Of a DNA stretch of 12,341 bases, positions 11,486 through 12,341 are shown piece after piece (positions within the stretch are counted from its first letter, which is position 1; each line of letters starts with the position of its first letter). The stretch is from Escherichia coli (lineage in GTDB: Bacteria; Pseudomonadota; Gammaproteobacteria; Enterobacterales; Enterobacteriaceae), in the NCBI RefSeq assembly GCF_003334815.1, contig NZ_QOWO01000059.1, one strand, 5' to 3'. The position numbers and the translations under genes were made by a program. The notes beneath the pieces were generated by a model, which saw only the letters and a list, made by a program, of their open reading frames with translations, was not told where the DNA came from and ran no database searches.

Positions 11486-12183
11486 TTACAGAAATGGTAA
11501 AGAAGGCATAATTCCCCGTGAAATACTGGCTAAGAAGCCTTTATCTGGTTGTTCTTCTTTATTGATTAAAGGAAGGTCATCCAAATCGCCCAGCAAATAC
11601 GTATTTTTTGCCTGCCAGTCAATCATCCATATTTTCAGCAGTGGATAAGCCAGACCGCCCGTAATCCCGGATATCACTACCAACGCACACATGCGATAAA
11701 GCATACCGTGGTAAGTTAAAGTTGAGCGAAAACGAATACGCCCATCATTCAGTGACAGGTTGCTCATAAAATGATTTCGCAACGACACCGTTAAATAACT
11801 GGTGCTAACAGCAATCCCAAAATAATAGATTAACTGCGCGATTATCATTTTACGTTGCATTTCCATAAATTGCTGTAAATTCTCAATATCATCATTTGCA
11901 TACACAGAACTATCATACGCATTTAATATTTGATCGAAGATAATATAACCAGCAACAGCGAGAAAAGGTAATAAAGCTAAAAATGCGAGGATGGCATATT
12001 TTATACAATACGCAGTATCTAATTTCACCTTGAAACGATGTATACCGAAACTGGTATTGCTCCAGAGAAAACTCATTACCAGGCTATATAAAGTACCATT
12101 AAAAATACCAATGAAAACAATACCAACTATTGCCATCAGAACCACAGATATAATAACACTACTTGAACTATTGGCATGTAGCA
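11486..12183 (-). pseudogene. yjgN: yjgN-like inner membrane protein gene (DUF898 family by K-12 synteny), C-terminal portion only; 5' part separated by IS10 insertion
   Basis: 232-codon open frame (…LYSLVMSFLWSNTSFG…PLINKEEQPDKGF…) with several hydrophobic segments. AT-rich by eye, in contrast to valS. Convergent with valS, as yjgN is in K-12. The apparent start at 12182..12184 is GTG created at the IS10 junction, and the frame upstream hits the IS10 transposase stop at 12197..12199. K-12 YjgN is about 398 aa, so roughly 165 N-terminal codons must lie beyond the IS. Identity as yjgN rests on synteny and length, not on a recalled sequence. Confidence 0.55.
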
Positions 12184-12341
12184 CTGAGAGATCCCCTCAT
12201 AATTTCCCCAAAGCGTAACCATGTGTGAATAAATTTTGAGCTAGTAGGGTTGCAGCCACGAGTAAGTCTTCCCTTGTTATTGTGTAGCCAGAATGCCGCA
12301 AAACTTCCATGCCTAAGCGAACTGTTGAGAGTACGTTTCGA
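12184..12341 (-). mobile_element. IS10 (Tn10-type), inside end; element continues beyond window end
   Basis: 12184 onward reads ctgagagatcccctcataatttccccaaagcgtaacc, which I recognise as the IS10 inside-end terminal sequence. The minus-strand translation of the remaining sequence gives the IS10 transposase C-terminus (see next feature). Confidence 0.85.
12197..12341 (-). CDS. IS10 transposase, C-terminal 46 codons (partial, 5' part off-window)
   Basis: Minus-strand translation of 12340..12200 is RNVLSTVRLGMEVLRHSGYTITREDLLVAATLLAQNLFTHGYALGKL followed by stop TGA (12197..12199), matching the Tn10/IS10 transposase C-terminus as I recall it. Confidence 0.85.
   Translation of the reverse strand, partial: RNVLSTVRLGMEVLRHSGYTITREDLLVAATLLAQNLFTHGYALGKL

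Follow-up and report, generated by a model that had tools for sequence, protein, structure and literature searches.

The right edge of the Escherichia coli contig analysed here carries a genuine junction between the chromosomal gene yjgN and the inside end of the insertion sequence IS10, placed to the base at 12183/12184. We favour, with some reserve, a stand-alone IS10 that landed in a copy of yjgN probably already inactivated by an upstream nonsense change, W144*. In strain BS15R-A the same yjgN nonamer, CATGTAGCA, is occupied by an IS10-flanked composite transposon carrying fosA5, and the two insertions look like independent events. Everything visible at the junction belongs to known families (IS10 and yjgN/DUF898) and is known in kind. 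A sequence-only reading of this DNA is confirmed in its observations, which were correct to the base, and partly supported in its interpretation, some of which was wrong.

The IS10–yjgN junction

The window, meaning the whole stretch of DNA that was analysed, is the entire 12,341-bp contig QOWO01000059.1 of the E. coli draft assembly GCA_003334815.1. Both contig ends lie inside insertion sequences, ISKpn26 on the left and IS10 on the right, and are therefore repeat-induced assembly breaks; the sequence stops on either side because repeats broke the assembly. The features at the two ends of the window and around the junction are listed below.

1-77, left contig end: terminal 77 bp of ISKpn26 (IS5 family)
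11452-11477, between the convergent valS and yjgN genes: GC-rich hairpin, terminator-like on both strands (plus strand, stem of 11 pairs and then a T-run; minus strand, stem of 10 pairs)
11486-12183, minus strand: 3' fragment of yjgN (DUF898 inner-membrane protein), 698 bp, beginning at the second base of codon 167 and ending with the stop codon
12175-12183: target nonamer CATGTAGCA, yjgN codons 167-169, this side's copy of the expected 9-bp target-site duplication
12184-12341, minus strand: inside-end terminal 158 bp of IS10, 158/158 identical to annotated IS10/ISVsa5 copies, cut off by the contig end
12190-12193: Dam site GATC, inside the inside-end repeat
12197-12341, minus strand: end of the IS10 transposase gene, comprising its last 47 codons and the stop at 12197-12199

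IS10 is a member of the IS4 family and encodes a cut-and-paste DDE transposase. The sequence from 12184 opens with CTGAGAGATCCCCTCATAATTTCCCC, the IS10 inside-end repeat (also given as CTGAGAGATCCCC at the start of the element), which is exact over 12184-12209. In IS10, the GATC site within this repeat is known to damp use of the inside end. On the minus strand, the frame at 12197-12340 translates to RNVLSTVRLGMEVLRHSGYTITREDLLVAATLLAQNLFTHGYALGKL followed by a stop, the C-terminal part reading …RLGMEVLRHSGYTITREDLLVAATLLAQNLFTHGYALGKL before the stop codon. No difference separates these 47 residues from the C-terminal end of WP_001339197.1, the 402-aa IS10 transposase, which is the copy found in BS15R-A. 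The sequence-only reading had placed the start of the inside end at 12184 and the stop of the minus-strand transposase at 12197-12199, and both placements are exact. The part of IS10 visible in the window amounts to 12% of the element. Over this part (the terminal 158 bp, the inside-end repeat, the GATC site, and the last 47 codons) there is no visible difference from annotated copies of IS10/IS10R, and matching copies carry the NCBI PGAP label "IS4-like element ISVsa5 family".

The chromosomal side of the junction is the 3' part of yjgN. In K-12 this gene (b4257) encodes a DUF898 inner-membrane protein of unknown function, and the remnant in the window occupies the same place, convergent with valS, which ends at 11432 on the plus strand. 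The minus-strand open reading frame at 11486-12184 encodes 232 aa, 226 of which (97%) are identical to K-12 YjgN residues 167-398 in a gapless and collinear alignment, and the product carries Pfam domain PF05987/DUF898. The alignment to K-12 that had been proposed as a check thus bears out the identity of the gene. The frame had also been described as the 3' two-thirds of the gene; it is a 3' fragment of yjgN, but its size is approximately 58%. Compared with the K-12 gene, the window copy is cut at codon 167 by the insertion sequence, and in this lineage it probably carries W144* too.

The yjgN-derived DNA ends at 12183, and IS10 begins with base 12184. The complement of 12184 gives the G of an apparent GTG start codon, where the native gene has ATG for Met167. 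RCR42948.1, the 232-aa product deposited as a "DUF898 family protein", begins at this GTG, in which the terminal base of IS10 is followed by TG. It was deposited as a normal protein although its start codon is partly IS10 sequence, an annotation artefact worth knowing. A Shine-Dalgarno-like GAGGGG lies 8 nt upstream of the GTG and overlaps the transposase stop codon (region 12182-12199), an arrangement that might in principle allow the truncated YjgN to be translated by read-through from the transposase gene. The target nonamer reads TGCTACATG on the other strand, where it has a perfect match to GCT, one half-site of the consensus that IS10 targets, NGCTNAGCN.

The same junction in other genomes

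The junction is genuine and not an assembly artefact, because it is present in a Logan contig, the site is empty in close relatives, and BS15R-A has it together with a target duplication. Relatives with 100% identity over the stretch (B-JRPT-4119 and 52F4) have the uninterrupted site TTGG-CATGTAGCA-TCTTTG, and the empty site is present in genomes 0-4 SNPs from the window. The Logan contig, from SRR3823859 and listed for seven samples, has both the same junction and the same yjgN allele. In the finished BS15R-A chromosome, the junction falls at the same base and in the same orientation as in the window, and CATGTAGCA stands on both sides of the insert, compared to once in empty sites. Removal of the insert and one nonamer from BS15R-A restores a 1197-bp, 398-codon yjgN. 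With both yjgN halves flanking the element in BS15R-A and relatives uninterrupted at the site, the claim that the gene is split by the insertion sequence holds. The window is a draft contig with both ends in repeats, where an IS10 end could be falsely joined to the end of a yjgN contig. We find such a chimera hardly credible, given that the identical junction occurs in a contig listed for seven samples and in a finished chromosome with a proper 9-bp duplication, and that the break coincides exactly with the terminal base of IS10.

A 258-bp probe spanning the junction matched one of 5426 complete E. coli genomes, that of BS15R-A, an ST278 isolate taken from a traveller after a trip and reported to be fosA5-positive (PMC8350485). 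In BS15R-A the insert is bounded by a pair of 1329-bp IS10 copies, at 6741-8069 and 9386-10714 of retrieved locus L001. The two copies share 100% identity, are in inverted orientation, and point their inside ends outward; the outside end of the copy at the junction lies at its other terminus. The passenger between the two copies measures 1316 bp and occupies 1824087-1825402 of NZ_CP063349.1. It is made up of what remains of lysR, the fosA5 gene, and a hypothetical gene cut short (Δhp), and its native context is the K. pneumoniae chromosome. The composite IS10-ΔlysR-fosA5-Δhp-IS10 spans 3,974 bp and is flanked by the 9-bp duplication CATGTAGCA. At least five plasmids, from E. coli, K. pneumoniae, and Enterobacter cloacae, have a 100% identical copy of the entire composite, which therefore moves as a unit. 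It is known on the E. coli plasmid NC_022374.1 and others, and is chromosomal in BS15R-A; among the 5426 complete genomes it is in one chromosome, and the plasmid collection has it in no fewer than 12 records. IS10-flanked fosA5, fosA6, and fosA10 of K. pneumoniae origin have been published (PMC7200238, PMC7755807). In BS15R-A, a known composite transposon has jumped into yjgN.

The window shares its chromosomal junction, outward inside end, and target nonamer with the BS15R-A copy, but the flanking yjgN allele differs by 7 SNPs in approximately 740 bp, with the nearest difference 70 bp from the junction. Since this flank differs from BS15R-A and is the native allele of the window's own lineage, the insertion was not inherited or imported with its flanks. 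From these comparisons, the window and BS15R-A insertions look independent, and the repeated use of a single nonamer is in keeping with the target selectivity known for IS10. The yjgN site is an unremarkable insertion site and not a discovery. The literature search returned no paper with yjgN and IS10 together, and none for the source accession numbers.

A third background with the IS10 junction is SRR7707874 (L013). Compared to BS15R-A, it has 2.6 kb of identical flank and then 38 SNPs in 4.1 kb, possibly the result of recombination that carried the insertion from one lineage to another.

Stand-alone IS10, composite, or Tn10

Because IS10 flanks Tn10 (IS10L-tetR/tetA(B)-IS10R), the insertion had been taken as a possible mark of a tetracycline-resistance transposon or of a laboratory-derived event. 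In Tn10 the outside ends are at both outer termini, and the transposase gene is oriented from the outside end toward the inside end (established; general background in PMC5006887). The window has the same insertion sequence and transposase as Tn10, but the junction with the chromosome is made by the inside end, where Tn10 as a unit has outside ends, and no tet genes are in evidence. An ordinary Tn10 insertion is therefore excluded, leaving a lone IS10 or an inside-out composite, and the composite in BS15R-A carries fosA5 rather than tet. The identity of the IS10 end that meets the chromosome is thus enough to rule out a Tn10 insertion immediately. The copy could have been donated by a Tn10 located elsewhere in the genome, and ML35, which we take to be a laboratory strain, is one of the many near-identical relatives of the window. 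These relatives are, however, mostly human, swine, bovine, and environmental isolates, and the same junction occurs in several sequenced samples. In addition, 1028 of the 5426 complete E. coli genomes (19%), mostly natural isolates, have this 158-bp IS10 end, at a total of 4896 places, of which 4146 are chromosomal, and with up to 45 places in one genome. Neither Tn10 nor a laboratory origin fits these observations, and we consider both very improbable.

For the source strain, a stand-alone IS10 is the reading we consider probable. In this geometry the outside end, which reads CTGATGAATCCCC on the 5'-yjgN side, would lie against 5' yjgN on another contig, with the junction …GGGGATTCATCAG joined to CATGTAGCATC. 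A lone IS10 is favoured for an independent event because the 4146 chromosomal lone-IS10 places in 1028 genomes vastly outnumber the composite. Against it, the sole complete genome with the exact junction holds the fosA5 composite, and none of the 5426 complete genomes has a lone IS10 at this yjgN site. The IS10 end in the window could accordingly be the outer edge of an inside-out IS10-ΔlysR-fosA5-Δhp-IS10 unit of 3,974 bp in yjgN, as in BS15R-A, a possibility that we put forward tentatively. This arrangement predicts an inside end at the chromosomal junction, as found, and a further inside end on 5' yjgN, with the junction …GGGGATCTCTCAG joined to CATGTAGCATC. The BS15R-A structure speaks for it, with exactly this junction, an inverted IS10 pair with inside ends outward, and the 9-bp duplication, as do the mobility of the identical unit among plasmids and the published IS10-flanked fosA genes from K. 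pneumoniae. On the other hand, the different flank up to 70 bp from the junction means that the window does not represent the same event as BS15R-A, and the composite is far rarer than lone IS10 as a donor for an independent hit. No contig of the source assembly with the passenger was found, in a search that was unable to exclude one. Any arrangement other than these two is improbable.

Several protein and DNA look-ups bear on the passenger and on the missing side of the insertion. The 207-aa Δhp open reading frame was on only six short contigs, and none of the places listed came from the source assembly. Its absence from Logan was rejected as evidence against the composite, since the frame is open to the contig edge and a different partial product would be called. 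Guessed contig-edge partial products of the fosA5 passenger were absent from the collection, and FosA5 and its 170-aa alternative call gave only K. pneumoniae chromosomes among the matches listed, longest contigs first. Hypothetical proteins in which the YjgN N-terminus reads through into the inside or outside end of IS10 (two alleles, several edge lengths) were also absent from the collection, and W144* would preclude any. A degenerate DNA pattern for the right-hand junction with either IS10 end had 0 matches in metagenome contigs. The overhangs at the contig ends (77 nt left, 158 nt right) were dropped as a gauge of the number of IS10 inside ends, since such a gauge would require the assembler and its k-mer size.

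It is on balance unlikely that the IS10-fosA5 composite entered the chromosome a second time, independently and at the same yjgN nonamer, in several sequenced isolates of a lineage that we presume to be phylogroup-A-like from knowledge of related strains. If true, yjgN would be a recurrent landing site, and a fosfomycin-resistance gene derived from Klebsiella would become fixed there in the E. coli chromosome. In that case the source strain would have a chromosomal fosfomycin-resistance gene captured from K. pneumoniae, and the contig would flag it, which is relevant to resistance surveillance but is not new biology.

For the stand-alone IS10, the sequence of events would be simple. In a natural E. 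coli strain, IS10 would have transposed into chromosomal yjgN at CATGTAGCA, with its inside end and transposase 3' end facing the 3' part of yjgN. A short-read assembler unable to resolve the repeats would have stopped the contig 158 bp into IS10 and 77 bp into ISKpn26. For the source strain we infer a full-length copy, its stand-alone state, the 9-bp duplication, and the W144* allele. The window would then show yet another instance of a very widespread insertion sequence, in a gene that is dispensable and probably dead, and this copy would be visible mainly through a broken draft assembly.

yjgN and the surrounding chromosome

In four of the four closest uninterrupted relatives examined (B-JRPT-4119, 300709, 52F4, and ML35), yjgN is annotated with an internal stop. 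B-JRPT-4119 and 52F4 match the window yjgN fragment perfectly, and 300709 and ML35 are near-identical to the window. The internal stop as read in B-JRPT-4119 and 300709 is W144* (TGG to TGA), located 23 codons upstream of the IS10 site. The 143-aa product of this change is recorded on at least 1000 contigs, and W144* is therefore a widespread allele. Judging from these relatives, yjgN of the source strain was probably already dead through W144* before the insertion, in which case IS10 would have had little or no phenotypic effect. The suggestion that the insertion inactivates a conserved gene is right in that yjgN is split; inactivation by IS10 is doubtful with W144* upstream in the relatives. 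Overall, yjgN behaves as a dispensable, often disrupted gene.

IS1 ends in other samples (L010-L017) abut yjgN at a minimum of four positions, at least, within 21 bp upstream of the Met167/IS10 site, in a sample biased by its retrieval through exact-protein look-up of the 232-aa product. This stretch just upstream of Met167 may be a local hot region for insertion sequences. The look-up is not junction-specific, as the native Met167 gives the same protein, and its matches were checked base by base; most of the matches other than the IS10 junctions were IS1 insertions a few bases upstream.

The window is otherwise an ordinary segment of the E. coli chromosome, with the gene order ahr, yjgR, lptG, lptF, pepA, holC, valS, and yjgN'. 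Between 78 and 12183 it differs from strain 300709 by 4 SNPs. At the left end, ISKpn26 is inserted at TTAA, approximately 200 codons into a gene for a 636-aa site-specific integrase beside tRNA-Leu(CAA) (leuX); the observation also covers 78-721 and 770-854. The 636-aa integrase is uninterrupted in strains 300709 and ML35.

The ahr gene directly adjoins yjgR (window 1008-3701). The idn genes, which lie between the two in K-12, are thus absent from the window lineage. A LacI-type regulator gene, presumably idnR, adjoins yjgR in two other retrieved loci (L010, L011). The gap between pepA and holC is 353 bp in the window, compared to 133 bp in BS15R-A, and this spacer contains, at 7783-8070, three tandem 96-bp REP/BIME-like units, two of which match Rfam naRNA4. 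Within pepA, there is an antisense Rfam match (175 bits) to Ysr276, a Yersinia antisense sRNA family, at 6827-7021 on the minus strand. This match probably reflects the conservation of pepA rather than a separate gene.
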